The notes: a model not told the origin generated them from the letters alone. A stretch of 64,000 nt of DNA from Vicinamibacteria bacterium (GCA_036556965.1 DATBIO010000241.1:160-64159), one strand, 5' to 3'; counted from the first letter of the stretch, positions 12,272-49,383 are shown. Numbers and translations are program-made.

Positions 12272-12324
12272 CCGGCCCAATTCACCGGCCGACAGTCGTG
12301 ACCATCGAGAACCCGGAGGCACCC

Positions 12325-20078: not shown

Positions 20079-20653
20079 GGCCCGCTCCGCGCCGGCGCCT
20101 CGTAGAGGCGGTTGAGCGCGCGCAGGAGCAGCGGCCGCCGCTCGCCGAAGGCGACGCCCTCCGCGCGTTGCCGTAGGCGCAGGTCCTGGGCCGCCGCCAC
20201 CCATTCCGCGGCGTCCTCGGGCAGCACCGCGTCCAGCGCCTCTCGCAGCAGGCCGGCCAGGGCGGGGGCACGGCCCCCGGTGGAGACGGCCACGGTGACG
20301 CCGCCACGCCGCAGCACGCCCGCGGCGTAGGCGCTGGCCTGCTCGGGATCGTCCACCGTGTTCACGAAGATGCGGCGCGCCTCGGCGGCCACCGCCACCT
20401 CCCGGTTCACGGGAGGCACTGCGGCGGCCACGGCCAGCCAGGCCCCGTCGAGGTCGGAGGCCGCGAAGGGGCGGCGCGCGACCTCCGCGCCCGAGGCTGC
20501 GATCTCGGGGTGGACGTCGGGCGCCACCACCAGCACCCGCGCGCCCGTTCCCAGGAGGAGGCGCAGCCGCGAGGCGGCGACGCGCCCGCCTCCCACGAGC
20601 ACCACGCGCCGCCCGGCCAGCTTCAGGAACAGCGGGAACAGCTCGGCGCTCAC
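20075..20653 (-). CDS. sirC: precorrin-2 dehydrogenase / sirohydrochlorin ferrochelatase (siroheme synthase N-terminal domain, SirC/Met8-like)
   Basis: [41 protein letters not shown] is a Rossmann NAD-binding motif of the CysG N-terminal domain. GTG start overlaps the stop of the cysH-sat-cysC gene (GTGA). Confidence 0.75.
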
Positions 20654-23217
20654 GAGGCCAGCGCCCTGGGTGCGCCGCGCGACACCAGGCCCCGCTCCTC
20701 CAGGGTGGCCACGATGAGCTCCAGGCTCTCCTCCACCGTCTGCGTGGCCGTCTCCACCACGACGTCGGGGCGCGGGGGGGCCTCGTAGGGGTCGGAGATG
20801 CCGGTGAAGTGGGGCAGGCTGCCGTCCAGGGCCTTCCGGTAGAGACCCTTGACGTCCCGCGCCACCAGGGCTTCGAGCGGCGCGCGCGCGTAGACCTCCA
20901 GGAAGGGGATGCCCTCCGCCGCTGCCTCGCCCCGGAGCTCCTCGCGCACGGCGGCGTAGGGCGAGATGGCGGCGGCGACCACGCCCGCGCCGTGCCGGGC
21001 GAGAAGACGCGCCACGAAGCCGATGCGGCGGATGTTCGTGTCGCGGTCCTCGCGCGAGAACCCGAGGCCCTTGGACAGGTGCGTGCGCACCTCGTCCCCG
21101 TCCAGGACCTCGAGGGCCCGCACGCCCTGAAGCCGGCGGACGAGGGCGGAGGCCAGCGTGCTCTTGCCGGCGCCGCTGAGGCCCGTGAACCAGACGATGA
21201 AGCCCTCCCCGCCGCGGGAGGCAGGGGCGGCGCCTGCGCGCTCGACCCCGCCCGCGCTCCCGGGCACGGCGTGGGGAGCGTGCGCGCGTCCGCCGGAGGC
21301 GGCGTAGTGCGCGCGGAGCACCTCCGCCACCTCCGGACGCGTGAACTGCCGCGGCAGCTCGCCGCCGCCCCGCAGGATCTCGCGCACCTTCGTGCCCGAG
21401 AGCTCGAGGCGGGCGGACTCCCCGTGCGGGCACGTCCGCTCGGAGGCGAGGGCGTCGCACTCGCGGCAGAAGAAGGTGGGGCGCAGCCGCAGGGGCTGGA
21501 CGCCCAGCTCCTCCGCCGGGAAGCGGTCGAAGATGGCCTGGGCGTCGTAGGGGCCGTAGTAGCGGCCGACGCCGGCGTGGTCGCGGCCCACGATGAGGTG
21601 CGTGATGCCGTAGTTCTTCCGCACCAGGGCGTGGAACAGGGCCTCCCGCGGCCCCGCGTAGCGCATGGCGGCGGGGAAGGCGGCCAGCAGCGTGCGCCCC
21701 GCCGGGTAGTAGCCCGTGACCAGGGCCTCGTAGGCGCGGAACCGCACCTCCGCGGGCACGTCGTCGTCCTTGGTCTGCCCGATGAGGGGGTGGAGGACCA
21801 GCCCGTCCGCGATCTCGAGGGCCAGCTTGGTGAGGTGCTCGTGGGCGCGGTGGATCGGGTTGCGCGTCTGGAAGCCGGCCACCGTGCGCCAGCCGCGCCG
21901 CGCGATCTCCGCGCGGAGGGCGCGCGGGGTGAGCCGGTAGCGGGCGAAGGGCAGGTCGGCGGGGGGCGGCAGGACCGTGACCTCGCCCCCGGCCAGCCAG
22001 GACGGACGCTGGAGCAGGTAGGCGACGCCCGGGTGGGCGGGGTCGTCGGTCCCGTAGACGGCGCGGGCCTCGCGCCCGGCGTCGCGCGGGAAGACCTCCG
22101 CCACCCTGAGCAGGCCCCGGAGCCGCCCGCTCTCGTCGTGCCGGGCGGCCTCCGCGCGCGGGCGCAGAAGGGCGCGCGCCTCGTCGGAGACGGAGAGCGT
22201 CACGGGGAGCGGCCACACCGTGCCGTGCGCGAGGCGGAGCCTCTCCAGCACGCTCTCGTAGTCCTCGCGGCCGAGGAACCCGGTGAGGGGGCTGAAGGCG
22301 CCCACCCCCAGCAGCTCGAGGTCGGCCGCCTCGCGCCCGTCGAGGCACAACGACGGCAGGTCGGCGGCACGGCGCCGCACGGCGTCCACGTCGTGGGCGG
22401 CCGCGAGCCGGTCCACGAGGGCGCCGCCGTGCGGCGCGACCAGGGGCTCGCCACCGGGGTTGATGCTCATGGGCAAGGGTTCCTTTCCTTCGAAGGTGAC
22501 GGCGGGGACGGCGACGGCGCGGGGACGGGTGTGCAGGCCGCACTCGCGGCGGTGCGAGCCGCGCCAGCGTCCGGCGCGCTCGTCCTCGTCCTCCGCCACC
22601 GCGGTGGTGCACGGCCAGCAGCCCAGGCTGGGATAGCCGCGCGCGTGCAGCGGGTTGGTGGGAACGTCGTGGGCGCGCAGGTAGCTCCACACCTCCGACC
22701 GGCCCCAGTGGGCGAGGGGGTTGACCTTCACCACCCCGAAGCGAGGGTCGCGCTCGACGAGGGCGGAGGCGGCGCGGTCCGCCGATTGCTGCCGGCGGAT
22801 GGCGGTGACCCACGCGTCGAGGGAGGCGAGCACGCGCTCGAGGGGCGCCACCTTGCGCAGCGCGCAGCACCGGCCGGGGTCGCGCGCCCACAGGGCGTCG
22901 CCGTGGGCCGCCGCCTGCGCGGCCACCGTCTGCCCGGGCACGACGCCGCGGATGGTGATGCCGTAGCGCTGCTCGAGGCGGCGCCAGAGGTCGTAGCTCT
23001 CGGCGAAGAACAGGCCGGTGTCGAGGGTGAAGACGTCGATGGGCAGCCGGTGGCGCGCGACGAGGTCCACGAGAAGGCAGCCTTCCGGGCCGAAGGCGGT
23101 GGCCAGGGCCAGGCGGGGTGCGAAGCGCGCGGCCGCCCAGGCGAGGACCTCCTGGGGCGGACGCCCCTCCAGGCGTCGGCTGGCTTCGGCGAGTTCGGCG
23201 GCGGACGGCGTACCCAT
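20650..23217 (-). CDS. trifunctional fusion: Fe-S-type adenylyl-sulfate/PAPS reductase (CysH) + sulfate adenylyltransferase (Sat) + adenylyl-sulfate kinase (CysC)
   Basis: One uninterrupted ORF. CysH block with [15 protein letters not shown] and ECGLH. Sat block with [13 protein letters not shown] and GRDHAGVG. CysC block with [23 protein letters not shown] precedes the ATG at about 23217. Confidence 0.8.
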
Positions 23218-32301: not shown

Positions 32302-33012
32302 GTGGCCGCCGTCCCCTCCCGCGACGTCCCGCGCGTGGCCGTGGTCATCCCCGCCCTGGACGAGGAGGAGGCCATCGGCGCCGTGCTCGCCGAGCTGCCC
32401 CCCGGGGCGCACCGCGTGATCGTGGTGGACAACGGCTCGCGCGACCGCACCGCGGCCGTGGCCCGCGCCGCGGGCGCCACCGTCGTGCACGAGCCGCGCC
32501 GCGGGTACGGCTCCGCCTGCCTGGCCGGGATCGCCGCCGCGCCCGAGGCGGAGGTGGTGGCCTTCCTCGACGGCGACCACAGCGACCATCCCGCGCAGCT
32601 GCGCGACGTGCTCGCCCCCATCCTCCGCGGAGAGGCCGACCTCGTGATCGGCTCGCGCGCGCGGGGCCGGCGCGCGCCCGGCGCGCATCCCTGGCACGCC
32701 ATCCTCGGCACGCGCCTGTGCGTCGCCCTCATGAACGCCCTCATCGGAACGCGCGCCACCGACCTGGGCCCCTTCCGCGCCATCACCGCCGGCGCCCTGC
32801 GGCGCCTGGACATGCGGGACGGGGGGTTCGGCTGGACGGTGGAGATGCAGATCAAGGCGCGGCGTCGCGGCCTGCGCGTGGTGGAGGTGGCGGTGGACTA
32901 CCGCCCGCGCGTGGGGCGGAGCAAGGTGAGCGGCACCCTCCGGGGGAGCGTGGGCGCGGGCGCGAAGATCCTGGGCCTGATCGCCCGGCATGCCCTGTCC
33001 GGACGCGCCTGA
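32302..33012 (+). CDS. family 2 glycosyltransferase (polyprenol-phosphate sugar synthase-like, TIGR04283-type)
   Basis: VAVVIPALDEEEAIGAVL, VIVVDNGSRDRT and DGDHSD (DxD) motifs. GTG start. Confidence 0.85.
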   Translation: MAAVPSRDVPRVAVVIPALDEEEAIGAVLAELPPGAHRVIVVDNGSRDRTAAVARAAGATVVHEPRRGYGSACLAGIAAAPEAEVVAFLDGDHSDHPAQLRDVLAPILRGEADLVIGSRARGRRAPGAHPWHAILGTRLCVALMNALIGTRATDLGPFRAITAGALRRLDMRDGGFGWTVEMQIKARRRGLRVVEVAVDYRPRVGRSKVSGTLRGSVGAGAKILGLIARHALSGRA

Positions 33013-34282
33013 CCGGGGCCGCGCCGCCCTCCGCCTGGTGGGGGCCGGCGCCGCCCTTTCCCTCTGCGTGGCCGTCTGGGCCCTCCAGGGCGACCAGACG
33101 CCGCGCGTCCCCTCCTTCCTCGTGCTGTACGCCGCCGCCTTCGCCGCCTATCTCGCGGCGGTGGCCACCAGCCGCGACGTCACGCCCGGGGCGCTGCGCC
33201 TCTGCCTTCTCGCGGCGGTGGCCTGGCGCGTGGCCCTGGTGGCCGCCCCCCCGCTGCTCTCCAACGACGTCCACCGCTCGGTCTACGAGGGGCGGGTGCA
33301 GAACGCCGGGGGCAACCCCTACGCCTGGCGGTTCCGCGCCGAGGTGGCGCCCGCGTCCCTGCGCGACGAGTCGTGGGAGCGCATGAACCACAAGCGGTAC
33401 ACCGCGATCTACCCGCCGCTGTGGCAGCTCGCGGCCCGCGCCGTCACCGCGCTCTGGCCCAGCGCCACCGCCATCAAGGCGCTGGTGGCCGCCTGCGAGA
33501 TGCTGTCGTGGTGGCCGCTGGCCCTCCTGCTGCGCCGCCGGGGGCTGCCGCGGGGCCGGCTCCTCGTCGCGGCCTGGAGCCCCCTCGCCCTCGTGGAGGG
33601 CGCGGGCAGCGGCCACAACGACGCCCTGGCCATCGCGCTGCTGGTGGGGGCCCTCTGCGCCCTCGAGGCGGGGCGGCCGGCCCTCGCCGCCCTCCTCGGC
33701 GGCCTGGGCGCGGCGGCCAAGCTGCTGCCGGCGCTGGTGGCGGCGGCCTGGGCGCGGCGCTTCCGCCCCTGGCACCTGCTGGTCCCCCTTGCCGTCATGG
33801 CCGCCCTCCTCCTGCCGTTCCGCGGGGCCGGCCCGGGCCTGTGGCGCAGCCTCCAGGACTACGGCCGCTACTGGCGCTTCAACGAGACGGGCTTCGCGCT
33901 GCTGGCCGGCATCGCGGGGTCGCACGAGAGCGCGGCCGCGGGCGCCGCGGGCCTCCTGCTCGCCCTCGCCGCCGCCCTGGCCTGGCGGGGCGTGGACGCC
34001 GTCGGCGCGGCCATGGCGCTGGCCACGGCGTGGATCGTGCTGTCCCCCAACGTCCTGCCCTGGTACGCGCTGTGGCTGGTCCCGCTGCTCGCGCTGCGGG
34101 ACGCGCCGCCGCTCATGGCCCTCACCGCGCTGCTGCCGCTGGCCTACCTCGTCTACCCGGCGTGGCTGGCCGGAGGCGAATGGCGCGTGGGCTGGGGCGT
34201 GCGCGCCGCCGAGTACCTTCCCCCGCTGCTGCTGGCGGGGCTCGCGTGGCGGCGCCGCGGCGCCGCTCGCCCTCTCGCATGA
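32990..34282 (+). CDS. integral-membrane glycosyltransferase (DUF2029 / GT87-like, polyprenol-phosphate-sugar dependent)
   Basis: About 10 TM helices. Conserved HxxY/W-rich loops. Overlaps the stop of the GT2 gene by 23 nt. Confidence 0.6.
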   Translation: MPCPDAPDRGRAALRLVGAGAALSLCVAVWALQGDQTPRVPSFLVLYAAAFAAYLAAVATSRDVTPGALRLCLLAAVAWRVALVAAPPLLSNDVHRSVYEGRVQNAGGNPYAWRFRAEVAPASLRDESWERMNHKRYTAIYPPLWQLAARAVTALWPSATAIKALVAACEMLSWWPLALLLRRRGLPRGRLLVAAWSPLALVEGAGSGHNDALAIALLVGALCALEAGRPALAALLGGLGAAAKLLPALVAAAWARRFRPWHLLVPLAVMAALLLPFRGAGPGLWRSLQDYGRYWRFNETGFALLAGIAGSHESAAAGAAGLLLALAAALAWRGVDAVGAAMALATAWIVLSPNVLPWYALWLVPLLALRDAPPLMALTALLPLAYLVYPAWLAGGEWRVGWGVRAAEYLPPLLLAGLAWRRRGAARPLA

Positions 34283-34959
34283 CCGAGGACGTCCTGATCG
34301 TGTTCCTCAAGGCGCCGCGGCCGGGGGCGGTCAAGACCCGCCTCCTGCCCGCGCTGAGCGAAGAGGAGGCCGCCCTCGTCTACCGCGCCCTGGCCGAGGC
34401 CGCGGTCCGGGCCACGGCGCCCGCTCCCGGCGGATACCGGCGGGTGTTCTTCTTCACGCCGGCCGAGGCCCGGGCGGAGATGGCCGCGTGGCTGCCCGGC
34501 GCGGCGCTCTTCGCGCAGGAGGGCGGCGACCTGGGCGCGCGCATGCTCCACGCGCTGTCCGCGGCCCTGGCCGGCGGCGCCGCGCGTGCGGCCGTGATCG
34601 GCAGCGACGTGCCGTGGCTGACTCGCGAAGCGGTCGAGGCGGCGTTCGCCGGGCTGGAGGGCCACGACCTCGTCCTCGGTCCCTCGCCCGACGGCGGCTA
34701 CTACCTGATTGCCCTGCGGCAGGCCCACCCCGGGCTGTTCGCGGACGTCCCCTGGAGCACGCCGGAGGTGCTGCGGGCGACGCGCGAGCGGGCGGCGCGC
34801 CTCGGCCTGCGCGTGCGCCTCCTGCCGCCGCTGCCGGACGTCGACACGGTCGAGGACCTCCGGCGGGAGTGGGGAAGGCTACGGCCCCTGCTGGCGGACC
34901 GCCCGGAGGCGGCGCGCCGGATGGAGGCTCGCCTCGGCCTCGCCGCGCCCGGCGGCTGA
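34279..34959 (+). CDS. DUF2064 / TIGR04282-family protein (partner of TIGR04283 GT2)
   Basis: LIVFLKAPRPGAVKTRL and GPSPDGGYYLIAL blocks. ATG overlaps the previous stop (ATGA). Confidence 0.7.
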   Translation: MTEDVLIVFLKAPRPGAVKTRLLPALSEEEAALVYRALAEAAVRATAPAPGGYRRVFFFTPAEARAEMAAWLPGAALFAQEGGDLGARMLHALSAALAGGAARAAVIGSDVPWLTREAVEAAFAGLEGHDLVLGPSPDGGYYLIALRQAHPGLFADVPWSTPEVLRATRERAARLGLRVRLLPPLPDVDTVEDLRREWGRLRPLLADRPEAARRMEARLGLAAPGG

Positions 34960-38008: not shown

Positions 38009-38590
38009 CTAGCCCAGGCCGTTGTGCTTCTTGCGGATCAGCGACAGGAACTCCTCGCGCGTCTGCTGCTGGTCGCGGAACGCTCCCTTCATGCACGACG
38101 TGATGGCGACGGAGTTCTGCTTCTCCACCCCGCGCATGATCATGCACAGGTGCATGGCCTCGATGACCACGCCCACGCCACGCGGCCCGAGCGTGTCCTG
38201 GATGGCCTCGGCGACCTGAACGGTCAGGCGCTCCTGCACCTGGAGGCGGCGCGCGAAGGCGTCCACCAGGCGCGGGATCTTGGACAGCCCCAGCACCTTG
38301 CCGTTGGGGATGTAGGCCACGTGGGCCTTGCCGAAGAAGGGCAGGAGGTGGTGCTCGCACAGCGAGAAGACGTCGATGTCCTTCACCACCACCATCTCGT
38401 CGTAGTCGACGGTGAAGAGCGCCTTGTTGAGCAGCTCGTCGACGTCCTGCGCGTAGCCCTGGGTCAGGAAGCGGAAGGCCTTGTCCACGCGCTCCGGCGT
38501 CTTGACCAGCCCCTCGCGGTCGGGGTCCTCGCCCACCCCCGCGAGGAGGGCCCGGATGTGCGGCCGCAGGTCGAAGGAGTCGCTCCCCAC
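38009..38590 (-). CDS. folE: GTP cyclohydrolase I
   Basis: [49 protein letters not shown] is the FolE active-site signature. GTG start 2 nt after the radical-SAM stop. Confidence 0.85.
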
Positions 38591-38592
38591 GC

Positions 38593-39717
38593 TCAGCCCC
38601 GCGCCGGAAGGGCCACCGCCTTCGGCCGCAGCTCCAGCCGCGTGGGCACCTTGGTCACCGCGCAGGAGCGGCAGATCGGCTCGCCGCCGGCCTCGTCGTC
38701 CCAGGTGCGGCGGCGGTGCGCCTCCCGCAGGCGCTCGAAGTTGGGGCTGGCCCAGGCCTCCTTGATGCTCTTCATCAGCGGGTAGCCGGGCAGGCGCACC
38801 ACCGGCCCCCCGTCGATCTCCAGCGTGAAGCCCTGGCAGCAGGGCATGGTGTGGCGCCCGTCCCAGGTCACCACCATGCGGCGGAAGGGATCCGGGCACT
38901 GGAACTCGGAGGCGTCCATCTGCCGCCAGTGCGCGGCCTTCCAGTGGTGCTCGGTGCCGGCGGGGAAGTAGCACTCGCTGATCGACATCCAGTCCACGCC
39001 GATCTTCCCGCGCCAGAACTCCTCCATGCGCCCGCTGTCCACCGCCTCCGCGTTCACGTGCGTGCGCACCACGGAGGCGCGGATGCGGCAGTCGGGCGCG
39101 CCCTTGCCCTCCGCGCGCGCGCGCACCGCCGAGCGCACGGAGTTCAGGAGGATCTCCCAGCTGCCGCCCACGCGCTGCTTGTGGTAGCTGTCGGGGTCGC
39201 AGGCGTCCACGGAGAACATCAGGTCCGTGATGCCCGCCTCCACCATGTGGGCGAACAGGTCGGGGTTCTTGCGCGCGCCCCCGTTGCCGTTGGTGTTCAT
39301 CATGATGTCGGGGAAGCCCAGGCCCGAGGCCTCGCGCACGAAGGACACGATGCGCGGGTGCAGGGAGGGCTCGCCGCGGTAGTTGAGCTTGAGCGAGCTG
39401 ACGCCGGCGTCCGCGCACTGCTGGAGGAGGCGCCCGTAGAGGACGGGGTCCATGTAGCCCCGCTGGTAGGTGTAGGCGTCGAAGCCCTGGGTGCGGATGT
39501 GCTCGTGCGTCCAGATCTGGCAGAAGCCCTGGGGGTCCTCCTCCGAGCTGCCGCAGCGCAGGTCGCACACCGCGACCGACTCGAGGTCCACGTGCACCGG
39601 GTGGTCGGCGGGGTCGAGAAGGGCCTCGCGCCGGTCCCACTCGCGGCGGTACTCGTCGTAGCGCTGGGAGCGGCTGGGGAGGCTCCCGAGGACGCGGAAG
39701 GTCGGGTCTTTGCTCAT
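38593..39717 (-). CDS. radical SAM protein with C-terminal SPASM-like cysteine cluster
   Basis: An AGGAG SD precedes the ATG at about 39717. Radical-SAM core blocks [11 protein letters not shown] (GGE-like) and MMNTNGNG. Cys-rich N-terminus [20 protein letters not shown]-terminal CPDP...MPCCQGF...ICRSCAV. The first 106 codons of the ORF are junk. Confidence 0.75.
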
Positions 39718-39823
39718 CGCTCCTGCTTCACCAAACCGCGAGTGTAGCAAGGCGGTGCGGCCGGCCGGTAGCCGGTGGGCCCCTCCTCGGCGGGTGCTAT
39801 GATGCCGGGGCCCGCAGGGCTGC

Positions 39824-41950
39824 ATGGACCAACCCGACCGGCTCGGTAAGTACCAGATCATCTCCAAGATCGGCCAGGGGGCCATGGGCGAGGTGTTCAA
39901 GGCCCTCGACCCCTTCTTCAACCGCCACGTCGCCATCAAGACCATGCCCTCCGGCCTGGAGGACGACGAGCTGCGCAAGCGGTTCGTGCGCGAGGCCCAG
40001 TCCGCGGCCGTGCTCAGCCACCCCAACATCGTCACCGTCTACGACTTCGGCGAGGAGCAGGGCCGCATCTTCATGGCCATGGAGCTGCTCGACGGCCAGG
40101 ACCTCAAGGACGCCATCGCGCGCGGGGTGGCCCTGAGCCTCGAGCAGAAGATCACCATCATGGAGGAGATCGCGGAAGGGCTGGCCTTCGCCCACTCCCG
40201 CGCCATCGTCCACCGCGACCTCAAGCCCGCCAACATCCACCTCCTGCCCAACGGCACGGTGAAGATCATGGACTTCGGGCTGGCCCGCCTGGCCTCCTCG
40301 GACATGACGCGGGTGGGCACCGTGATGGGCACGCCCAACTACATGTCGCCGGAGCAGGTCCAGGGGGAGAAGGCGGACGTGCGGTCGGACGTCTTCTCCC
40401 TGGGCGCCGTGTTCTACGAGCTGCTCTCGGGCAAGAAGCCGTTCGAGGCCCCCTCCCTGCACGCCATCCTCTTCCAGGTCATGCAGAAGGAGCCGGAGCC
40501 GCTGGAGACGATCAAGCCCGAGCTGCCCGCGGCCGTCTGCGACATCGTGGTGAAGGCCCTGTCCAAGGACCCGAACCGCCGCTACCAGGACGCGGGCGAG
40601 CTGCGCGACGCCATCCACGAGGTGCGCACGTTCCTGTTCCCCAAGGACCGGGGGCGGCTGGGATCGGGGCCGTTGCGCCGTCCCACCGACACCGGGGCCC
40701 ATTCGCGGGCGGCCGCCATCGCCGCCGCCTCCACGCCGCCTCCGCCCGTGTCGGTGTCGCCGGCGGGCCGCGTGGAGGGAGCGGTGGCGCTGGCCCCGGA
40801 CCCGGCGGCGCCCGGCTCCACGCTCAAGCCGCAGAACCCCCCCACGCTCTCCGGCTTCTCGCAGACGCAGGTGGGCATCGGCGCGGAGCAGGCGGGGCGC
40901 AGGCGCCTCGCGCTGTACGCCGGGGGGGCGCTCGTGGCCGCCGCCGTGGCGGGCGCCACCTGGCTGTCCATGCGCGAGCAGGCCGCGCCGCCGGCGCCGG
41001 AGGTGACCGCGCCCGCCGCCGCCGTCCCCGCCCCTCCCGCCGTGGACCAGCGCGCCGCCTGGCTCGCCGCGGCGCAGCAGGCCCTGCGGGAGCGGAGGTA
41101 CGCGGAGGGGGTGTCGGAGGCGGAGAAGGTGCTGGCGGTGGACCCCGCCAACGTGGCCGCCACCGACGTGGCCCGCCTGGCGCGCCAGGGCCTCGCCGAC
41201 GTGGAGCGGGCGGTGGCGGACGTGCGCCGCGCCCTCGCCTCCGGCGACACGCGCGCGGCCTCGCGCGGCCTGTCGCGCCTTCTCGCCCTGGACCCCGAAA
41301 ACGCGGCGGTGGCCGAGTTCACGGCCCGCCTGAACAGCAGCTTCCGCACCGAGGCCCAGCAGGCGCGCGCGGCGTCGCAGCGGGCGGAGAAGGCGGCGCG
41401 GGACGCCGCCGCCGGCGCCCTGCCCGAGTTCGGCGCCGCCGCCACCGCGGCCGCCGACGCAGACGCCCTCTTCAAGCGCGAGGAGTACGCGGCGGCGGCG
41501 CGCCGCTACGGAGCGGCGGCGGAGGGATTCGCCCGCGCGCGCGCATCCGCGGAGAGCGCGGCGGCGGCCGCCGCGGCCGCCGCGGCCGCGGCCGCGGCCG
41601 CGACGCTGCCGCCGGCCCCCGCGCCCACCCCCGCGGCCGACCCGCGCTCCGCCGACGACGCCGCCATCCGTGCGGTGGTGGCCACCTACGCGCAGGCGCT
41701 GAAGACGCGCGACCTCGCGCTCTTCAAGAGCGTGAAGCCCGGCGTCACCGGCGCCGAGGAGCGCGCGCTGCGCCGCTCCGAGGCGGAGGACGTGGGCGTG
41801 AGCGTCGCGTCCATCGGCTTCAGCGGCGACCGCGCCCGGGTGCGCGTGACCCGCCGTGAGGTCAAGGACGGCAAGACCTCCCAGTCCCAGCAGACCCTGC
41901 TCCTCGTGAAGCAGGGCGCGAGCTGGGTGATCCAGCAGATCACCCGCTAG
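39824..41950 (+). CDS. Hanks-type Ser/Thr protein kinase with a C-terminal helical/poly-Ala region and a SnoaL/NTF2-like (DUF4440) domain
   Basis: Kinase subdomains GQGAMGEVFKA, VAIK, HRDLKPANI, DFGLA and GTPNYMSPE. A 17-residue Ala run. The C-terminus AIRAVVATYAQALKTRDLALFKSV...WVIQQI is NTF2-like. Confidence 0.9.
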   Translation: MDQPDRLGKYQIISKIGQGAMGEVFKALDPFFNRHVAIKTMPSGLEDDELRKRFVREAQSAAVLSHPNIVTVYDFGEEQGRIFMAMELLDGQDLKDAIARGVALSLEQKITIMEEIAEGLAFAHSRAIVHRDLKPANIHLLPNGTVKIMDFGLARLASSDMTRVGTVMGTPNYMSPEQVQGEKADVRSDVFSLGAVFYELLSGKKPFEAPSLHAILFQVMQKEPEPLETIKPELPAAVCDIVVKALSKDPNRRYQDAGELRDAIHEVRTFLFPKDRGRLGSGPLRRPTDTGAHSRAAAIAAASTPPPPVSVSPAGRVEGAVALAPDPAAPGSTLKPQNPPTLSGFSQTQVGIGAEQAGRRRLALYAGGALVAAAVAGATWLSMREQAAPPAPEVTAPAAAVPAPPAVDQRAAWLAAAQQALRERRYAEGVSEAEKVLAVDPANVAATDVARLARQGLADVERAVADVRRALASGDTRAASRGLSRLLALDPENAAVAEFTARLNSSFRTEAQQARAASQRAEKAARDAAAGALPEFGAAATAAADADALFKREEYAAAARRYGAAAEGFARARASAESAAAAAAAAAAAAAAATLPPAPAPTPAADPRSADDAAIRAVVATYAQALKTRDLALFKSVKPGVTGAEERALRRSEAEDVGVSVASIGFSGDRARVRVTRREVKDGKTSQSQQTLLLVKQGASWVIQQITR
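41557..41602 (+). repeat. GC-only (GCS)n trinucleotide repeat encoding poly-Ala inside the kinase gene
   Basis: About 15 consecutive GCG/GCC codons. Confidence 0.5.
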
Positions 41951-42073
41951 ACCGGGCCCACCGCCGAGCGCGGCAGCGGGGGAGTCTCCGCCTCCCGGCC
42001 TGTCGTGCGGCGGCTTCCGCTCCTCCGGACCTCGTGCGGCCCCTCCTTCGCGGATCCTCCACTCGTTCACCCC

Positions 42074-44503
42074 GTGAGTGGTCCCACGTTGAGCCAGCCC
42101 CTGGTCCTGCGCCGCGACGAGGCGCTCTCTCCCGAGCGCGGCCTCCTGGCCGTCCTCAAGGCCTTCGAGATCGAGAAGACGCTCGGCGAGGAGCCGGTGC
42201 TCGCCGCCCTCCGCCGCTTCCCGCCCGAGCCCGCGCAGCACGCGGACTTCCCGGAGGAGCTCCACCCGCGCCTGCGCGCGGCCCTCCGTGCGCGCGGCGT
42301 GGAGCGGCTCTACACGCACCAGCGCGAGGCCTACGACGCCGCGCGGCGCGGCGAGAACGTGGTGGTGGTGACGCCCACGGCCTCCGGCAAGACGCTCTGC
42401 TACACGCTGCCCGTCCTCGATCGCATCCTGGGCGAACCGGACGCGCGCGCCCTCTTCCTCTTTCCGACCAAGGCCCTCTCCCAGGACCAGCTGGCGGGCC
42501 TGCACGCCACGGTGGAGGAGCTGGGGGCGGACATCGGCACCTTCACCTACGACGGCGACACCCCCCAGGACGCGCGCAAGGCCATCCGCGCGCGCGCCCA
42601 CGTGGTCATCACCAACCCGGACATGCTCCACAAGGGCGTGCTGCCCCACCACACGAAGTGGGCGAGGCTCTTCGAGAACCTGCGCTACGTGGTGGTGGAC
42701 GAGCTGCACGGCTACCGCGGCGTCTACGGCTCGCACGTGGCCAACGTCTTCCGCCGCCTCCACCGCCTGTGCCGCTTCTACGGCTCCGCCCCCCAGTTCC
42801 TCTGCTCGTCCGCCACCATCGGCAACCCGCGCGAGCTGGCCGAGGCCCTGACCGGCCGCCCCATGCGCCTCGTCGACCGCAGCGGCGCCCCCCGCGGCGA
42901 GCGGTTCTTCGCCCTCTACAACCCGCCGGTGGTGAACCGCCAGCTCGGCATCCGGCGCTCCGCCCTCAACTGCGCGCGCGACGTGGCCCTCTCCTTCCTG
43001 GGCAAGGGTCTGCAGACCATCGTCTTCGCCCCCTCGCGCCTGTCCACCGAGGTGCTGGTCAGCTACCTGAAGGAGGCCCTCGAGCGCCGGCCCGGCGCGG
43101 AGGGCGTCATCCGCGGCTACCGCGGCGGCTACCTGCCGCTGAAACGGCGCGAGATCGAGCGCGGGCTGCGCGACGGCAGCGTGCTGGGGGTGGTCTCCAC
43201 CAACGCCCTCGAGCTGGGCGTGGACATCGGCAGCCTGGACGCCGCGGTGCTGCTCGGCTACCCGGGCAGCGTGGCCTCCACCTGGCAGCAGGCGGGGCGT
43301 GCCGGCCGCCGCCAGGGGGCCTCCGCCGCCGTGCTGGTGGCGAACTCGACCCCCCTGAACCAGTTCCTCGCGCGCAACCCCGAGTACTTCTTCGACGCGC
43401 CCGTCGAGCAGGGCCGGCTCAACGCCGACAACCTGCAGATCCTCCTGAGCCACGTCAAGTGCGCGGCTTTCGAGCTGCCCTTCGCCGACGACGAGCACGC
43501 GCTCTACGGCACGCGCGAGGACCTGGGCGAGGTGCTGCGTTTCCTGGAGGAGGAGCGGCTCCTGCACCGCTCGGGCGGGCGCTGGCACTGGACCTCCGAG
43601 AGCTATCCCGCGGACGCGGTCAGCCTGCGCAGCGTCTCCTCCGACAACTTCGTGGTGCAGGACGTGACCTCCGACCCGTGCGTGGTGGCGGAGGTGGACT
43701 TCGACAGCGCGCCCTCCACCCTGCACGAGAAGGCCGTCTACATCCTGGAGGGCCGCACCTACTTCGTGGAGCGCTACGACCACGAGCAGCGGCGCGCCCA
43801 CGTGCGCGAGGCGGAGGTGGACTACTACACCGACGCCATCACCCACTCCAAGGTGCGCATCCTGGAGACCTTCGACGAGCGGCCCGCGCGCGCCGCGCGG
43901 CGCAGCCACGGCGAGGTGCACGTCTCCTCGCAGGTGGTGGGCTTCAAGAAGATCAAGTTCCACACGGGCGAGAACGTGGGCGCGGGCGAGCTGCAGATGC
44001 CGGAGAGCCAGATGCACACCACCGCCTACTGGCTGACGGTGCCGCGCGCGGTCATGGCCGCCCTGCCCTACGGGAGCGAGGATCGGCGCGACGGCGTGGT
44101 CGCCCTCGCGCACGCGCTGGGCCAGCTGGCCGCCCTCTTCCTGATGTGCGACCGGCGCGACCTGGGCCTGGCCCTGGGCGAGGGCGGCACCGCCCAGCAC
44201 GCGGCGCGCCCCTCGCGCGGGCCCGGCGGCCCCGGCGACCGCTCCCTCTCCCTCGAATACGAGCCGCAGGTCTTCCTCTACGACGGCTACCCGGGCGGCA
44301 TCGGCCTCTCCGAGCCGCTCTTCCGGCTGCACGAGCGGCTGCTGGGCGAGAGCCGCGCGCTGATCGCCGCCTGTCCCTGCGCGGAGGGCTGCCCGTCGTG
44401 CGTGGGCCCCCCGGGCGAGGTCGGCCGCCGGGGCAAGGAGGTGGCCCTGGCCCTGCTCGACCGGCTGCACGGGCCGGCCCTCGAGGAGGCGGCGCCGGAG
44501 TGA
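42074..44503 (+). CDS. DEAD/DEAH-box helicase with C-terminal DUF1998 four-Cys domain (MrfA/YprA-like)
   Basis: Motif I TPTASGKT. DEAH-like VVVDELHGYRG. Helicase C block. The C-terminal DUF1998 CPCAEGCPSCVGPP. Exact start uncertain (GTG about 42074 or ORF start 42005). Confidence 0.85.
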   Translation: MSGPTLSQPLVLRRDEALSPERGLLAVLKAFEIEKTLGEEPVLAALRRFPPEPAQHADFPEELHPRLRAALRARGVERLYTHQREAYDAARRGENVVVVTPTASGKTLCYTLPVLDRILGEPDARALFLFPTKALSQDQLAGLHATVEELGADIGTFTYDGDTPQDARKAIRARAHVVITNPDMLHKGVLPHHTKWARLFENLRYVVVDELHGYRGVYGSHVANVFRRLHRLCRFYGSAPQFLCSSATIGNPRELAEALTGRPMRLVDRSGAPRGERFFALYNPPVVNRQLGIRRSALNCARDVALSFLGKGLQTIVFAPSRLSTEVLVSYLKEALERRPGAEGVIRGYRGGYLPLKRREIERGLRDGSVLGVVSTNALELGVDIGSLDAAVLLGYPGSVASTWQQAGRAGRRQGASAAVLVANSTPLNQFLARNPEYFFDAPVEQGRLNADNLQILLSHVKCAAFELPFADDEHALYGTREDLGEVLRFLEEERLLHRSGGRWHWTSESYPADAVSLRSVSSDNFVVQDVTSDPCVVAEVDFDSAPSTLHEKAVYILEGRTYFVERYDHEQRRAHVREAEVDYYTDAITHSKVRILETFDERPARAARRSHGEVHVSSQVVGFKKIKFHTGENVGAGELQMPESQMHTTAYWLTVPRAVMAALPYGSEDRRDGVVALAHALGQLAALFLMCDRRDLGLALGEGGTAQHAARPSRGPGGPGDRSLSLEYEPQVFLYDGYPGGIGLSEPLFRLHERLLGESRALIAACPCAEGCPSCVGPPGEVGRRGKEVALALLDRLHGPALEEAAPE

Positions 44504-45396
44504 AGGCGCGCCTCCTGCCCGCCCTGGCCGCCCTCGCCCTGGGCGCCGCCGCCTCCGGCGCCCCCGCGCGGCCGCCGGTGCGGGCGGTGGTGCTCGGCAT
44601 CGCGCAGGACGGCGGCGTGCCCCACATCGGCTGCGGCCAGGAGCTGTGCCGGCGCGCGCGGCGCTATCCCGCGCACGGCGAGCGCGTGGCCGCCCTCGGC
44701 CTCGTCGACGAGGCGGCGGGGAAGCGGTTCCTGGTGGAGGCCACCCCCGACCTGCCCGCGCAGGCCGACGCGCTGGGCGGACTCGACGGCATCCTGGTCA
44801 CCCACGCCCACATCGGCCACTACACCGGGCTCATGTACCTCGGCCGCGAGGCGCGGGGCGCCCGTGACGTGCCGGTGTGGGCCACCCCGCGCATGGCCGC
44901 CTTCCTGCGCGCCAACGCGCCCTGGAGCCAGCTGGTGGCCCTGGGCAACCTCTCCCTGCGCGAGGTCGAGCCCGGCCGCGAGGTCGTGCTCTCGCCCGGC
45001 CTGCGCGTGACCGCGCTGCGCGTGCCCCACCGCGACGAGCTGAGCGACACGGTGGCCTTCCGCGTCCGCGGGCCGTCCCGCGCCCTGCTCTTCCTGCCCG
45101 ACGTGGACAAGTGGGAGACGTGGGACCGCCGACTGGAGGACGAGGTGGCGGCGGTGGACCACGCGCTCCTGGACGGCACCTTCTTCGCCGCGGACGAGAT
45201 CCCCGGCCGCTCCCAGGCCGACATCCCGCACCCGCTGGTGCCGGAGACGATGGCCCTCCTGGGGGGGGGCCGCGGGCGCGTGCTCTTCATCCACCTCAAC
45301 CACACCAACCGCCTGCTCTGGGACGCGACCGCCCGCCGCTCTCTCGTGCGGCGCGGCTTCGGGGTCGCGCGCGAGGGCCAGGAGATCGCGCTCTGA
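44500..45396 (+). CDS. MBL-fold metallo-hydrolase with predicted Sec signal peptide (PqqB-like)
   Basis: GTG overlaps the helicase stop (GTGA). Signal-like VKARLLPALAALALGAAASGAPA. Metal-binding HAHIGHYTG (HxHxDH-type) and later His/Asp ligands. Confidence 0.7.
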   Translation: MKARLLPALAALALGAAASGAPARPPVRAVVLGIAQDGGVPHIGCGQELCRRARRYPAHGERVAALGLVDEAAGKRFLVEATPDLPAQADALGGLDGILVTHAHIGHYTGLMYLGREARGARDVPVWATPRMAAFLRANAPWSQLVALGNLSLREVEPGREVVLSPGLRVTALRVPHRDELSDTVAFRVRGPSRALLFLPDVDKWETWDRRLEDEVAAVDHALLDGTFFAADEIPGRSQADIPHPLVPETMALLGGGRGRVLFIHLNHTNRLLWDATARRSLVRRGFGVAREGQEIAL

Positions 45397-46761: not shown

Positions 46762-49383
46762 ATGTCCGCCCCGGACGAATCCCCTACGGACGCGCCCGGC
46801 GCGAGCCGCGTGCGGCGGCGCGCCGCCGACGCCCTCGGCCTCCTCCTCGTCTACGCCCTGCTGCTGGGCACGGTGCCGCCCTCGCTCCTCCTGCTGCCCA
46901 CCATCACCGCGGGCGGCGACACGCCGTGCCATTACCCCACCGCGGCCTGGTTCGTGGAGCGGCTGCTCCCGCGCCTGCGGCTGCAGGGCTGGTATCCGGG
47001 GGCCTACCTCGGCCAGCCGCTGCTCCTCTACTACTTCCCGCTCCCGTTCCTGGCCATGGCCGCGCTCGCCCCCGTCTTCGGCCTGCCCGCGGCCTTCAAG
47101 CTCGGCGCCTTCGGCGGTCCCTTCCTCCTGCCCCTCCTCGCCTACGCCGCGTTCCGCCTGATGCGGTTCCGCTTCCCGGCGCCCCTGCTCGCCGCCGCCG
47201 CCGGCGCCGTCTTCCTGTTCGTCGAGGAGAACCCCATCTGGGGCGGCACCCTGGCCAGCGCCTTCACCGGCGAGTTCGCGTACGGGTGGGGCATCGGCCT
47301 GGCCGTGCTCTTCCTCGGCGTCGTGTACCGCGCCTACGCCACCGGCGCGAGCCCGGTCCTGCCCGCCGCGCTGCTGGCCCTGGTGGCCCTGGCCCACGGC
47401 TACGCCGTGCTCTGGGCGGGCCTGTCCGCCGCCTACTTCCTCTACGGCGCGCGCCGGCCGCTGCGCACCCTGGGCTGGCTCCTCGCCATCGCCGGGCTCG
47501 CGCTGTGCCTGGCCGGGTTCTGGCTGCTGCCTTTGCTCGGCGACTGGGGCTGGACCACGCCCTACGACGACCCCTGGATCACGGTGACCTGGCGCGGCCT
47601 GGTCCCTCCGCTGCTCTGGCCGCTGTTCGCGGCCGCCCTGCTGGCCCTGGCCGGCTCCGCCCTGCTCGCGCGCAGGGCGCGCGGGCACGACCAGCGCGTC
47701 CTCTTCATCGCCCACGCCGCCCTGGTGGCGGCCGCCCTCGCCGCGGCCGCGCCCGCCGCCGGCGTCATCGACGTCCGCTTCGTGCCCTTCGCCCATCTCG
47801 CGCTGGCCCTCGCGGGCGCCGCCTTCCTCGGCCTGCTCTTCGCCCGCCTGCGCCTTTCGGACGTGGCCGCGGTGGGGGCGGTGATGCTGGCCCTCGCCTG
47901 GTCCGACGCGCACTCCAAGGTCCTGCGCTTCTGGGCGGACTACAACCTGGGCGGCCTGGAGGCCAAGGAGCTGTGGCCGGCCTGGTCGGAGCTGAGCCAG
48001 TGGCTGCACGGGACGGCGGCCGACCCGCGGGTGGCGGTGGAGTACTCCACGGAGCACGAGAAGGCCGGCTCCATCCGCGTCTACGAGACCCTGCCCTTCT
48101 TCTCGGGCCGCTCCACCCTGGAGGGCGTCTACAACCAGGCCAGCGTGGTCACCCACCCCGTCTACTACCTGGCCTCCGAGCTGGGCGCCTCCTCGCCCAA
48201 CCCGTTCCGCCGCCGCGAGTACTCGCGCTTCGACACCGACGCCGCGCTCGGCCACCTCGAGCTCTTCAACGCCGACACCGTGGTCGCGCTCAGCCCCGCG
48301 CTGGTGGCCGCCCTCGACGGACACCCCGCCGCCCGCCGCGAGCGCGAGATCCCGCCCTACGTGGTCTTCCGCCTGCACCAGCGCACGGGCTACGCGGAGC
48401 CCCTGGCCTTCGCCCCCGTGCGCAGCCCGCGCGCGGGCTGGCGCGACAAGTCGTACCGCTGGTTCACGCGCAAGGAGCGCGGGCAGCCCCACCTCGTCTT
48501 CACCGACGACCCCCGCTTCGAGACGGTGGAGGCGGACGAGTGGCTGCCCCCGCCGCGCGTTTCCCTGGCCGCGGGGACCGAGGTGGAGTCCGTGGTGGAG
48601 GACGAGCGCATCACGCTCCGCACCAGCAGGGTGGGCCACCCGGTGCTGGTCAAGGTGGCGTACCACCCGCGCTGGCGCGCGGAGGGGGCCGACGGCCCCT
48701 ACCTCGTGGCGCCGGGCCTGATGATGGTGGTGCCCACCGCCTTCGAGGTGCGCCTCACCTACGGCCGCCGCGCCAGCGACGTCCTCGGCCTCGCCCTCAC
48801 CCTGTCGAGCCTGGCCGGCCTGGCGGCCCTGGCCGTCTGGAGGCGCCGACGCCGCGCGGAGCAGCCGCCCGCGGCCGCCCCCGTCATCCCCGCGGACGCC
48901 TGCGAGGTGCCCACGCCGCCGCGGCGCTGGGGAGCGGCCGTGCCCACCACCCTGCTCGTGGCCCTGGCGGCGGCGCGCTTCGTGCCGCAGGGGGAGGCGT
49001 CGGCCGACGCGGGCGACCTCTACGACCGCGCCTCGCGCGCCTACGCCGAGGCGCGCTGGGCCGACGCCGCCGAGTACGCGCGCCACGCGCTGTTCCCGGC
49101 CCGGGACATGGCCCTCCACGCCTCGCTGCTCAGCCTGCGCGGGGAGAGCCTGCTGCGCGCCGCGCGCCCGCGCGAGGCCCTGCTCTCGTTCCAGGACGTG
49201 CTGGGCGAGCCGTCCTCGCCCTACCGCGCGCAGGCCCTCTTCGGCGCGGCGGAGGCCCAGTCCGCGCTGGGCGACGAGGCGGGGGCCCGCGAGTCGCGCG
49301 CGCGCCTGCTCAAGGAGTTCCCGGAGTCGCCGTGGGCCACGCGCGTGCAGGCCACGCCCGCCGCCGCCACCGCCGTCCGCTAG
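46762..49383 (+). CDS. large polytopic membrane protein with a soluble middle domain and a C-terminal TPR-like region (possible GT-C-fold glycosyltransferase)
   Basis: More than 10 N-terminal TM helices, another TM helix near residue 690, and a TPR-like C-terminus. No confident family assignment. Confidence 0.6.
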   Translation: MSAPDESPTDAPGASRVRRRAADALGLLLVYALLLGTVPPSLLLLPTITAGGDTPCHYPTAAWFVERLLPRLRLQGWYPGAYLGQPLLLYYFPLPFLAMAALAPVFGLPAAFKLGAFGGPFLLPLLAYAAFRLMRFRFPAPLLAAAAGAVFLFVEENPIWGGTLASAFTGEFAYGWGIGLAVLFLGVVYRAYATGASPVLPAALLALVALAHGYAVLWAGLSAAYFLYGARRPLRTLGWLLAIAGLALCLAGFWLLPLLGDWGWTTPYDDPWITVTWRGLVPPLLWPLFAAALLALAGSALLARRARGHDQRVLFIAHAALVAAALAAAAPAAGVIDVRFVPFAHLALALAGAAFLGLLFARLRLSDVAAVGAVMLALAWSDAHSKVLRFWADYNLGGLEAKELWPAWSELSQWLHGTAADPRVAVEYSTEHEKAGSIRVYETLPFFSGRSTLEGVYNQASVVTHPVYYLASELGASSPNPFRRREYSRFDTDAALGHLELFNADTVVALSPALVAALDGHPAARREREIPPYVVFRLHQRTGYAEPLAFAPVRSPRAGWRDKSYRWFTRKERGQPHLVFTDDPRFETVEADEWLPPPRVSLAAGTEVESVVEDERITLRTSRVGHPVLVKVAYHPRWRAEGADGPYLVAPGLMMVVPTAFEVRLTYGRRASDVLGLALTLSSLAGLAALAVWRRRRRAEQPPAAAPVIPADACEVPTPPRRWGAAVPTTLLVALAAARFVPQGEASADAGDLYDRASRAYAEARWADAAEYARHALFPARDMALHASLLSLRGESLLRAARPREALLSFQDVLGEPSSPYRAQALFGAAEAQSALGDEAGARESRARLLKEFPESPWATRVQATPAAATAVR

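Follow-up and report, generated by a model that had tools for sequence, protein, structure and literature searches.

A radical-SAM/Twitch enzyme family with a stretched cluster motif, encoded beside folE in Vicinamibacteria and tentatively linked to ulosonic-acid sugars

The DNA analysed here, hereafter the window, is a stretch of 64,000 nt from a Vicinamibacteria bacterium (GCA_036556965.1 DATBIO010000241.1:160-64159), to which all positions refer. On its minus strand, a gene encoding a 374-amino-acid radical S-adenosylmethionine (SAM) protein directly precedes folE, the gene for GTP cyclohydrolase I, with a gap of 2 nt, an arrangement claimed in a preliminary description of the locus and borne out by our reading of the sequence. 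The radical-SAM protein belongs to a family of SPASM/Twitch radical-SAM enzymes with a new spacing of the cluster motif. Regarding its role, we tentatively favour an enzyme, co-transcribed with folE, that would modify a sugar of the ulosonic-acid type (3-deoxy-D-manno-octulosonate, Kdo, or a nonulosonic acid, NulO), in its cytidine monophosphate (CMP) form or as a precursor. The link with folE would then be a matter of operon packaging that some of the Vicinamibacteria have retained, and not of a shared pathway.

The N-terminal cluster region had been reported to read CDLRC-x10-C in place of CxxxCxxC, and this was correct. In an alignment of 56 sequences, C51, C55 and C66 are invariant, and so is F65, which takes the place of the aromatic residue usually found just before the third cysteine; residues G56, S57, P62 and G64 of the intervening insertion are at least 90% conserved. 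The spacing CX3CX10C occurs in 98 of the 101 full-length family members, with CX3CX6C in one, whereas 133 of the 135 nearest relatives outside the family have the canonical CX3CX2C in the form CNLRCxMC. When the family is aligned with these canonical relatives, the three cysteines fall on the canonical ones and an 8-column gap opens in all relatives; judging from this alignment, the family motif is thus the canonical CxxxCxΦC lengthened by a loop of 8 residues, which lies after the second cysteine and before the invariant Phe-Cys. As the three cysteines are invariant and aligned on canonical positions, a misread or chance motif was rejected, and no regular CxxxCxxC had been overlooked. The GGE-like and NTNG core motifs noticed earlier are present as RGEP (residues 114-117) and NTNG (141-144), invariant or nearly so, and the core-fold and SAM-binding features of the radical-SAM superfamily (GGE-like motif, xTNG ribose motif and beta-5 SxD) are all found, while the cysteine motif of the superfamily (PF04055) is present in the variant CX3CX10C form. 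The Pfam Radical_SAM model barely recognizes the protein (30.3 bits for a threshold of 29.5, with an alignment beginning at profile position 13), so that motif-based searches could overlook such enzymes. Variant cluster motifs are on record for QueE (CX14CX2C), HmdB (CX5CX2C), ThiC (CX2CX4C) and PhnJ (PMC4389238). The spacing described here differs from these literature variants, and no radical-SAM paper was found for the term "CX3CX10C".

At the other end of the protein, C274, C293, C294, C349 and C352 are invariant in the family and kept in the canonical relatives too, the conserved C-terminal pattern being limited to C274-x12-G287-x5-C293-C294 and C349-x2-C352. A profile of the family compared with the sequences of the PDB gave a sole match, BtrN (4m7s, E 2.5e-6), in which C274, C293, C349 and C352 fall on the C-terminal (Twitch) cysteines. 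These BtrN residues are presumably its auxiliary-cluster ligands, and C294 is an extra invariant cysteine. The SPASM element CX2CX5CX3C, and with it the seven-cysteine SPASM pattern, is absent from the aligned sequences of the family and its relatives. Because the four BtrN cysteines are matched and CX2CX5CX3C is absent, the C-terminal domain is predicted to be Twitch-like, with one auxiliary cluster, and not a full SPASM domain; a Pfam SPASM match of 25.6 bits is obtained despite the missing seven-cysteine motif because this model also covers Twitch domains. The earlier assignment to SPASM with a C-terminal cysteine cluster therefore stands for the cluster and for the SPASM/Twitch subgroup, but not for a full SPASM domain.

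The AlphaFold2 model of the protein has a mean predicted local distance difference test (pLDDT) of 87 and a predicted template modelling (TM) score of 0.88, and is weak only in the inserted loop (pLDDT 57-70) and in the tail. Structure comparison of this model with known enzymes scored SuiB at 20.8, BlsE at 20.5, SkfB at 20.1, anSME at 19.5, PqqE at 19.0, MoaA at 18.3, viperin at 17.9, BtrN at 17.5, and the QueE proteins of B. subtilis and E. coli at 10.1 and 7.4. Foldseek returned generic radical-SAM matches from the PDB, with TM below 0.5, and an unnamed phage SPASM protein as the best match from BFVD, while no NCBIfam model came near its cutoff for the radical-SAM protein, the top one being a tungsten-cofactor maturase (44.9 vs 380 bits). 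The protein is a true member of the SPASM/Twitch subgroup of radical-SAM enzymes, with a core that looks functional. The preliminary description had set it apart from QueE and MoaA, partly on account of its size; the distinction holds, but the size argument does not, a length of 374 amino acids being compatible with MoaA. What rules MoaA out is the hidden Markov model (HMM) scores (TIGR02666 28.2 vs 284, TIGR02668 30.4 vs 325 and NF001199 23.8 vs 231 bits, over residues 85-200 only). QueE is excluded as well, since the protein fits neither the model and fold of QueE nor its lack of an auxiliary cluster, and queD/queC context is missing among the annotated neighbours. Prokaryotic viperin (pVip) was also rejected, the PADLOC pVip model matching nothing beyond the core, at 17.8 bits (E 4e-4); the protein bears a Twitch domain, which is absent in viperins.

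The family has few members and stands apart. Among 5.8 billion proteins searched, 131 relatives were retrieved at E <=0.001, and a second search, seeded with the phage-like group introduced below, retrieved 141, mostly the same proteins; the family amounts to about 140 sequence clusters. In an exhaustive search of 1.84 billion representatives, HMM scores dropped from about 600 bits within the family to less than 190 bits outside, and the nearest outside relatives share 25-31% identity over the full length. We further collected 71 loci in a genome scan (one genome per species) and 80 loci in a metagenome set, the two sets overlapping; neighbouring genes were called with a gene caller guided by GC content at third codon positions (GC3), given the high GC. 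Nearly all 71 genome loci belong to the class Vicinamibacteria of the Acidobacteriota, Marinacidobacterales included, and the enzyme is strongly conserved, with 70-88% identity within the class. A second branch, 53-60% identical to the window protein and with the same motif, lies on phage-like contigs (GC 41-45%) that carry a PolA-uracil-DNA glycosylase (UDG) fusion, Dam, N6/N4 methyltransferases, Mom, HNH, PIF1 and runs of small open reading frames (ORFs) on the same strand. IMG/VR held a single relative, 25% identical, INPHARED only two matches (23%), and PHROGs no informative match for the radical-SAM enzyme. Literature searches on CX3CX10C, GTP cyclohydrolase with twitch, Kdo with cytidylyltransferase and nonulosonic acid with NeuB found no characterised member, and the enzyme counts as uncharacterised. 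Some copies appear damaged: in L068 (8001-9084) and L071 (8122-9114) the gene is apparently frameshifted, with tblastn matches split over two frames, and in P0116 the similarity to the family is lost from about residue 205 up to the C-terminal cysteine motif; such copies may be pseudogenes or may result from errors in long-read assembly. Four members (P0009, P0012, P0013, P0027) bear the JGI name "CDGSH-type Zn-finger protein", at odds with a radical-SAM/Twitch architecture, which looks like a misannotation.

The case for a sugar substrate comes from the relatives and from the phage-like branch. All five canonical relatives examined lie in sugar clusters that combine a NeuB/KdsA-type synthase with a CMP-transferase (CTP_transf_3). 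In L083 the radical-SAM gene is accompanied by a NeuB-CTP_transf_3 fusion, an epimerase, a UDP-sugar dehydrogenase, a GT2-CTP_transf_3 fusion, NeuB and DegT; in L084 by a KdsA/NeuB-type synthase, CTP_transf_3 and glycosyltransferases; and in L169, from Woesearchaeota, by DegT, CTP_transf_3 and NeuB. In L170, CTP_transf_3 is fused to the radical-SAM domain in one protein, and NeuB, SIS and a phosphatase are encoded close by. In L077, a phage contig with apparent terminase and portal genes as read from translated ORFs, the radical-SAM gene lies together with a cytidylyltransferase-GT2 fusion, an epimerase and a KdsA-like synthase. Fusions among the relatives also join the radical-SAM domain to a KdsB-like protein (P0136/P0270) or to an FkbM methyltransferase (P0152). 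Within the family, the phage-like L078 has the gene order radical-SAM-kdsB-kdsA-kdsD' with overlapping gene ends, and NCBIfam gives 226 bits for KdsB and 347 bits for the KDO8P synthase model. In L076, L080, L082, L085, L086, L090 and L092, one to several proteins of about 200-260 amino acids are encoded beside the radical-SAM gene, and their profile matches the GT42 sialyltransferases Cst-I (E 5.8e-8) and Cst-II (about 1e-6, nearly full length), with a range of 6e-8 to 5e-6, as well as PHROG 4603, "alpha-2,3-sialyltransferase". On eight such contigs (L076, L080, L082, L085-L087, L090, L092) arrays of GT42-like paralogues sit inside the DNA replication/modification module (PolA-UDG, Dam, Mom), and sulfotransferase-like proteins occur on the same phage-like contigs; an ulosonic-acid glycosylation system in these contigs is a possibility. 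Pfam matches in the phage contigs to MptE-like, an archaeal 6-hydroxymethyl-7,8-dihydropterin pyrophosphokinase, were set aside as a pterin link, being sub-threshold and produced by several paralogues per contig whose profile is that of GT42.

In the Vicinamibacteria, the surroundings of the gene fall into three groups. In group A, which includes the window, a divergent Ser/Thr kinase gene precedes the radical-SAM-folE pair, usually followed by convergent genes for a TIGR04282 protein and a membrane protein. In group B, the order is glutaminyl cyclase, TIGR04282 (17 nt upstream, same strand), radical SAM, folE (sometimes missing) and a UbiH-like FAD monooxygenase, and a convergent kdsD-kdsA-pyrG-kdsB operon is found 2-6 kb downstream. 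In group C (Marinacidobacterales-type), the neighbours are an esterase-like protein, dnaX, a CaCA transporter or an amidohydrolase, and no folE was found within 8-10 kb, nor was any found near a phage-like member. Overall, folE is directly downstream in 37 of the 71 genome loci and 50 of the 80 metagenome loci, so that the pairing noticed in the window does recur among orthologues; it is confined to two Vicinamibacteria subclades. A TIGR04282 homologue lies one or two genes from the radical-SAM gene in 16/71 and 23/80 loci, in two arrangements. In L109 (11121-12758), folE is split by an intein of about 350 amino acids just before the catalytic cysteine of CEHH (…FSL|CVPSKQ…LTHN|CEHH…), its FolE Pfam domain coming in two pieces with Intein_splicing at 30.7 bits (under the gathering score) and LAGLIDADG_3 at 21.4 bits. 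This intein accounts for an apparent gap of about 1.2-1.3 kb between the two genes, and by analogy the gaps of that size in L091, L095, L103 and L151 are presumed to be inteins as well.

Putting these observations together, we propose that the enzyme acts on a 3-deoxy-2-ulosonic-acid-type sugar (Kdo or nonulosonic acid), on its CMP-activated form or on a precursor. The [4Fe-4S] cluster that cleaves SAM would be bound by C51, C55 and C66, and a single auxiliary [4Fe-4S] cluster by C274, C293 (or C294), C349 and C352, as in BtrN. The 5'-deoxyadenosyl radical would abstract a hydrogen from the sugar, and the auxiliary cluster would take care of the electron, serving as an electron conduit, a chemistry we suggest by analogy with BtrN, SpeY, DesII and BlsE. 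Dehydrogenation, epimerisation, deoxygenation and decarboxylation are candidate reactions, and the product would feed an envelope glycan. This proposal draws on the five sugar clusters, the KdsB-radical-SAM fusion, the phage-like kdsB-kdsA operon and the GT42-like neighbours, to which the group B kds operon and the recurrence nearby of TIGR04282 with a possible membrane glycosyltransferase can be added. Several observations weigh against it. By far the commonest partner is folE, across two differently arranged neighbourhoods, and the TIGR04282 neighbour resembles CofC and MobA, which use GTP. The group B Kdo operon is convergent and the genomes that carry it are related, so that it counts as roughly one event, and the 64-kb window holds no Kdo/NulO gene. 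For the Vicinamibacteria copies the sugar link is indirect, coming from the phage members (53-60% identity) and the relatives (25-31%), from which the family has strongly diverged in its insertion and its new contexts; the diverged family may have gained a new function.

A functional link with FolE itself is a second reading, which we regard as unlikely: the enzyme could act on GTP or on the FolE product, 7,8-dihydroneopterin triphosphate, and, together with the CofC/MobA-like TIGR04282 protein, lead to a pterin, deazapurine or pterin-nucleotide metabolite, with phages running the same reaction on host GTP or pterin. The frequency of the pair would fit, as would its persistence in groups A and B despite their different flanking genes, the recurrence of TIGR04282 in two arrangements with a match of 53.6 bits to the CofC guanylyltransferase model, and the many invariant Arg and Lys residues among the 56 aligned sequences, which suit an anionic substrate. 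Yet folE is missing from the Marinacidobacterales-type and phage-like loci, no homologue of QueD, QueC, QueE, 6-pyruvoyl-tetrahydropterin synthase (PTPS), MoaC or MoaB was found among the annotated neighbours, and no tetrahydrofolate (THF), preQ1 or molybdenum cofactor (Moco) riboswitch was detected at the locus with Rfam. Moreover, FolE looks ordinary, both genes have a host-like GC3, the MoaA models stay at 28-30 bits for cutoffs of 231-325, and both the closest relatives and the phage-like members suggest a sugar-cluster context. The pterin or deazapurine substrate put forward in the preliminary description has thus lost ground, its single basis being an adjacency restricted to two subclades. 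Its fuller version, in which the enzyme rearranges GTP or dihydroneopterin triphosphate to a pterin/deazapurine-type compound that TIGR04282 processes further, and which phages captured for their DNA replication/modification module, is if anything less likely.

The other readings are minor. A maturase for a protein or metallocofactor, of the anSME or tungsten-cofactor oxidoreductase maturase type with its partner encoded elsewhere, seems improbable in view of scores far under the cutoffs of 380 and 400, of one auxiliary cluster where anSME has two, of the lack of a conserved partner protein or peptide gene nearby and of the absence of an RRE/PqqD-like domain, the N-terminal extension being a single helix common to the sugar-cluster relatives. 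Transfer of the adenosyl group, as by ArsS, HpnH or MqnE, with the 5'-deoxyadenosyl adduct processed by TIGR04282 as proposed for arsenosugar biosynthesis, draws on the fact that TIGR04282 is named for its association with the radical-SAM ArsS and that a member lies near the gene in 39 loci; it is very improbable, for there is no ArsS (TIGR04167) match among the NCBIfam results and no arsM or TIGR04283 partner among the neighbours, and the TIGR04282 gene is absent from the phage-like and group C loci. We give the least credence of all to a SPASM-type maturase of RiPPs (peptides made by the ribosome and modified after translation), along the lines of the peptide substrate considered earlier. 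The Pfam SPASM match and the structural similarity to SuiB, SkfB and CteB would speak for it, but the second auxiliary cluster is lacking, Pfam and NCBIfam reveal no RiPP recognition element (RRE) domain, nothing conserved adjoins the gene in more than 150 loci, be it a short ORF, a protease or a transporter, the 106-nt upstream spacer is too short for a precursor gene, and the relatives stand in sugar clusters.

The features of the locus are listed in Table 1. The start codon of the radical-SAM gene is considered correct because the N-terminus is common to all homologues, and the FolE start agrees with the N-termini of FolE homologues. FolE is a canonical GTP cyclohydrolase I (Pfam GTP_cyclohydroI 254.7 bits; TIGR00063 259.3 for a cutoff of 181.6; NF006825 278.6 for 174), whose translation shows the Zn/catalytic motif SLCEHH and HLCM with the distal cysteine. 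The translational coupling with folE asserted earlier is only plausible, because the gap varies from -1 to +147 nt in relatives and the 2-nt gap is peculiar to the window genome; co-transcription is well supported. Rfam found no riboswitch or leader RNA upstream of or between the genes, its sole match being a chance microRNA (E 0.41), and no sigma-70-like promoter or terminator consensus was matched at the locus, which has little meaning at 74% GC. The region at 38-40 kb has a lower GC (0.698) than its surroundings, and recent horizontal acquisition was considered and rejected, since the GC3 of the radical-SAM gene (0.987) and of folE (0.985) is host-like (0.97 in the rest of the window); the genes are thus native and the dip stems from amino-acid composition. 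The best matches to the window come from metagenome-assembled genomes of Vicinamibacteria, which are 86% identical in the radical-SAM enzyme, as much as 84% in FolE and 70% in the helicase encoded nearby.

Table 1. Coordinates of the radical-SAM/folE locus and of nearby genes in the window
Feature	Position	Strand	Basis or remark
Radical-SAM/Twitch enzyme gene	38593..39717	-	ATG at 39717, TGA 38595-38593; 374 aa + stop
Radical-SAM cluster motif C51-x3-C55-x10-C66	39520..39567	-	Invariant Cys, aligned to relatives' CxxxCxxC
Family-specific insertion G56-G64 (GSSEEDPQG), between second Cys and invariant F65-C66	39526..39552	-	Alignment gap in relatives
Predicted Twitch-like auxiliary-cluster domain (C274, C293/C294, C349, C352)	38662..38898	-	Invariant Cys; BtrN profile alignment
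Spacer "GC", 2 nt, radical-SAM stop to folE GTG	38591..38592	-	Read directly in sequence
folE, GTP cyclohydrolase I	38009..38590	-	193 aa, GTG start at 38590; Pfam, TIGR00063
Intergenic region shared with the kinase gene, presumed promoter region	39718..39823	.	ORF calls
Ser/Thr kinase gene, divergent	39824-41950	+	Kinase Pfam 196 bits
TIGR04282 (DUF2064, CofC/MobA-like) transferase gene	34294..34929	+	TIGR04282 194.4 bits vs cutoff 134; CofC 53.6 bits
Polytopic membrane protein gene	32990..34282	+	Directly upstream of TIGR04282 gene; tblastn 62% identity to cluster c38

The membrane protein encoded next to the TIGR04282 gene has no Pfam or NCBIfam match and is possibly a membrane glycosyltransferase. 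The pair formed by these two genes stays near radical-SAM/folE in relatives and is apparently fused in L007, according to a naive ORF call. TIGR04282 carries the family label "arsenosugar biosynthesis glycosyltransferase", and there is no arsS or arsM near the window gene. Beyond the kinase gene, positions 42005-45396 (+) encode an MrfA-type DEAD-box helicase with an MrfA Zn-binding domain (832 aa), then a metallo-beta-lactamase-fold protein (Lactamase_B_2, 86 bits). Some group A relatives likewise encode a homologue of the helicase at 0.1-7 kb from the radical-SAM gene, on the side of the kinase. An 873-aa membrane protein at 46762-49383 (+) matches Pfam PTPS_related with 103.6 bits and was not counted as a pterin link, this being a membrane-protein family despite the reference to 6-pyruvoyl-tetrahydropterin synthase in its name. 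Elsewhere in the window, a single 855-aa ORF (20650-23217, -) fuses PAPS reductase, ATP sulfurylase (PUA_2) and APS kinase, and a class II (B12-dependent) ribonucleotide reductase with a TSCPD domain (12298-15054, +) lies in the stretch of lowest GC (0.676, 12-14 kb).

The family is confined to phages and to abundant soil and marine Acidobacteria. If the enzyme acts on ulosonic-acid sugars, it points to a new modified sugar, similar to Kdo or sialic acid, both in the envelopes of Vicinamibacteria and in the glycosylation systems of phages; if the link with folE is functional, it would belong to a new pathway to a GTP-derived nucleobase, metabolite or cofactor. In either case, a structure of the enzyme would show how the cluster loop tolerates an insertion, and whether the inserted loop serves as a cluster shield or as a docking site.

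The closest known enzymes are the Twitch radical-SAM carbohydrate enzymes BtrN (2-deoxy-scyllo-inosamine dehydrogenase), SpeY, DesII and BlsE. Identity with them is just 15-20%, BtrN has the canonical CX3CX2C motif, and the window family adds an N-terminal YRxEW helix, the C293-C294 pair and the 8-residue insertion; moreover, no aminocyclitol or nucleoside-antibiotic genes lie near the family gene. The canonical-motif Twitch proteins of NeuB/KdsA and CMP-transferase clusters (P0130-P0155 and others) are homologous over the full length and share with the family the N-terminal Y-R-x-x-W helix, the core motifs, the five C-terminal cysteines and a sugar-cluster context like that of its phage-like members. 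They differ in their CNLRCxMC motif and in the HMM scores given above; those examined have no folE neighbour, and we found no characterised one in the literature. MoaA, the GTP 3',8-cyclase, has an auxiliary cluster held by three cysteines, with an open Fe for GTP, whereas four or five C-terminal cysteines are conserved in the window family, and neither moaC nor other Moco genes are nearby. A variant radical-SAM cluster motif, in which a loop is inserted and the three cluster cysteines are retained, is what the family has in common with HmdB, ThiC, PhnJ and the QueE of Burkholderia multivorans (CX14CX2C); QueE also acts downstream of FolE.

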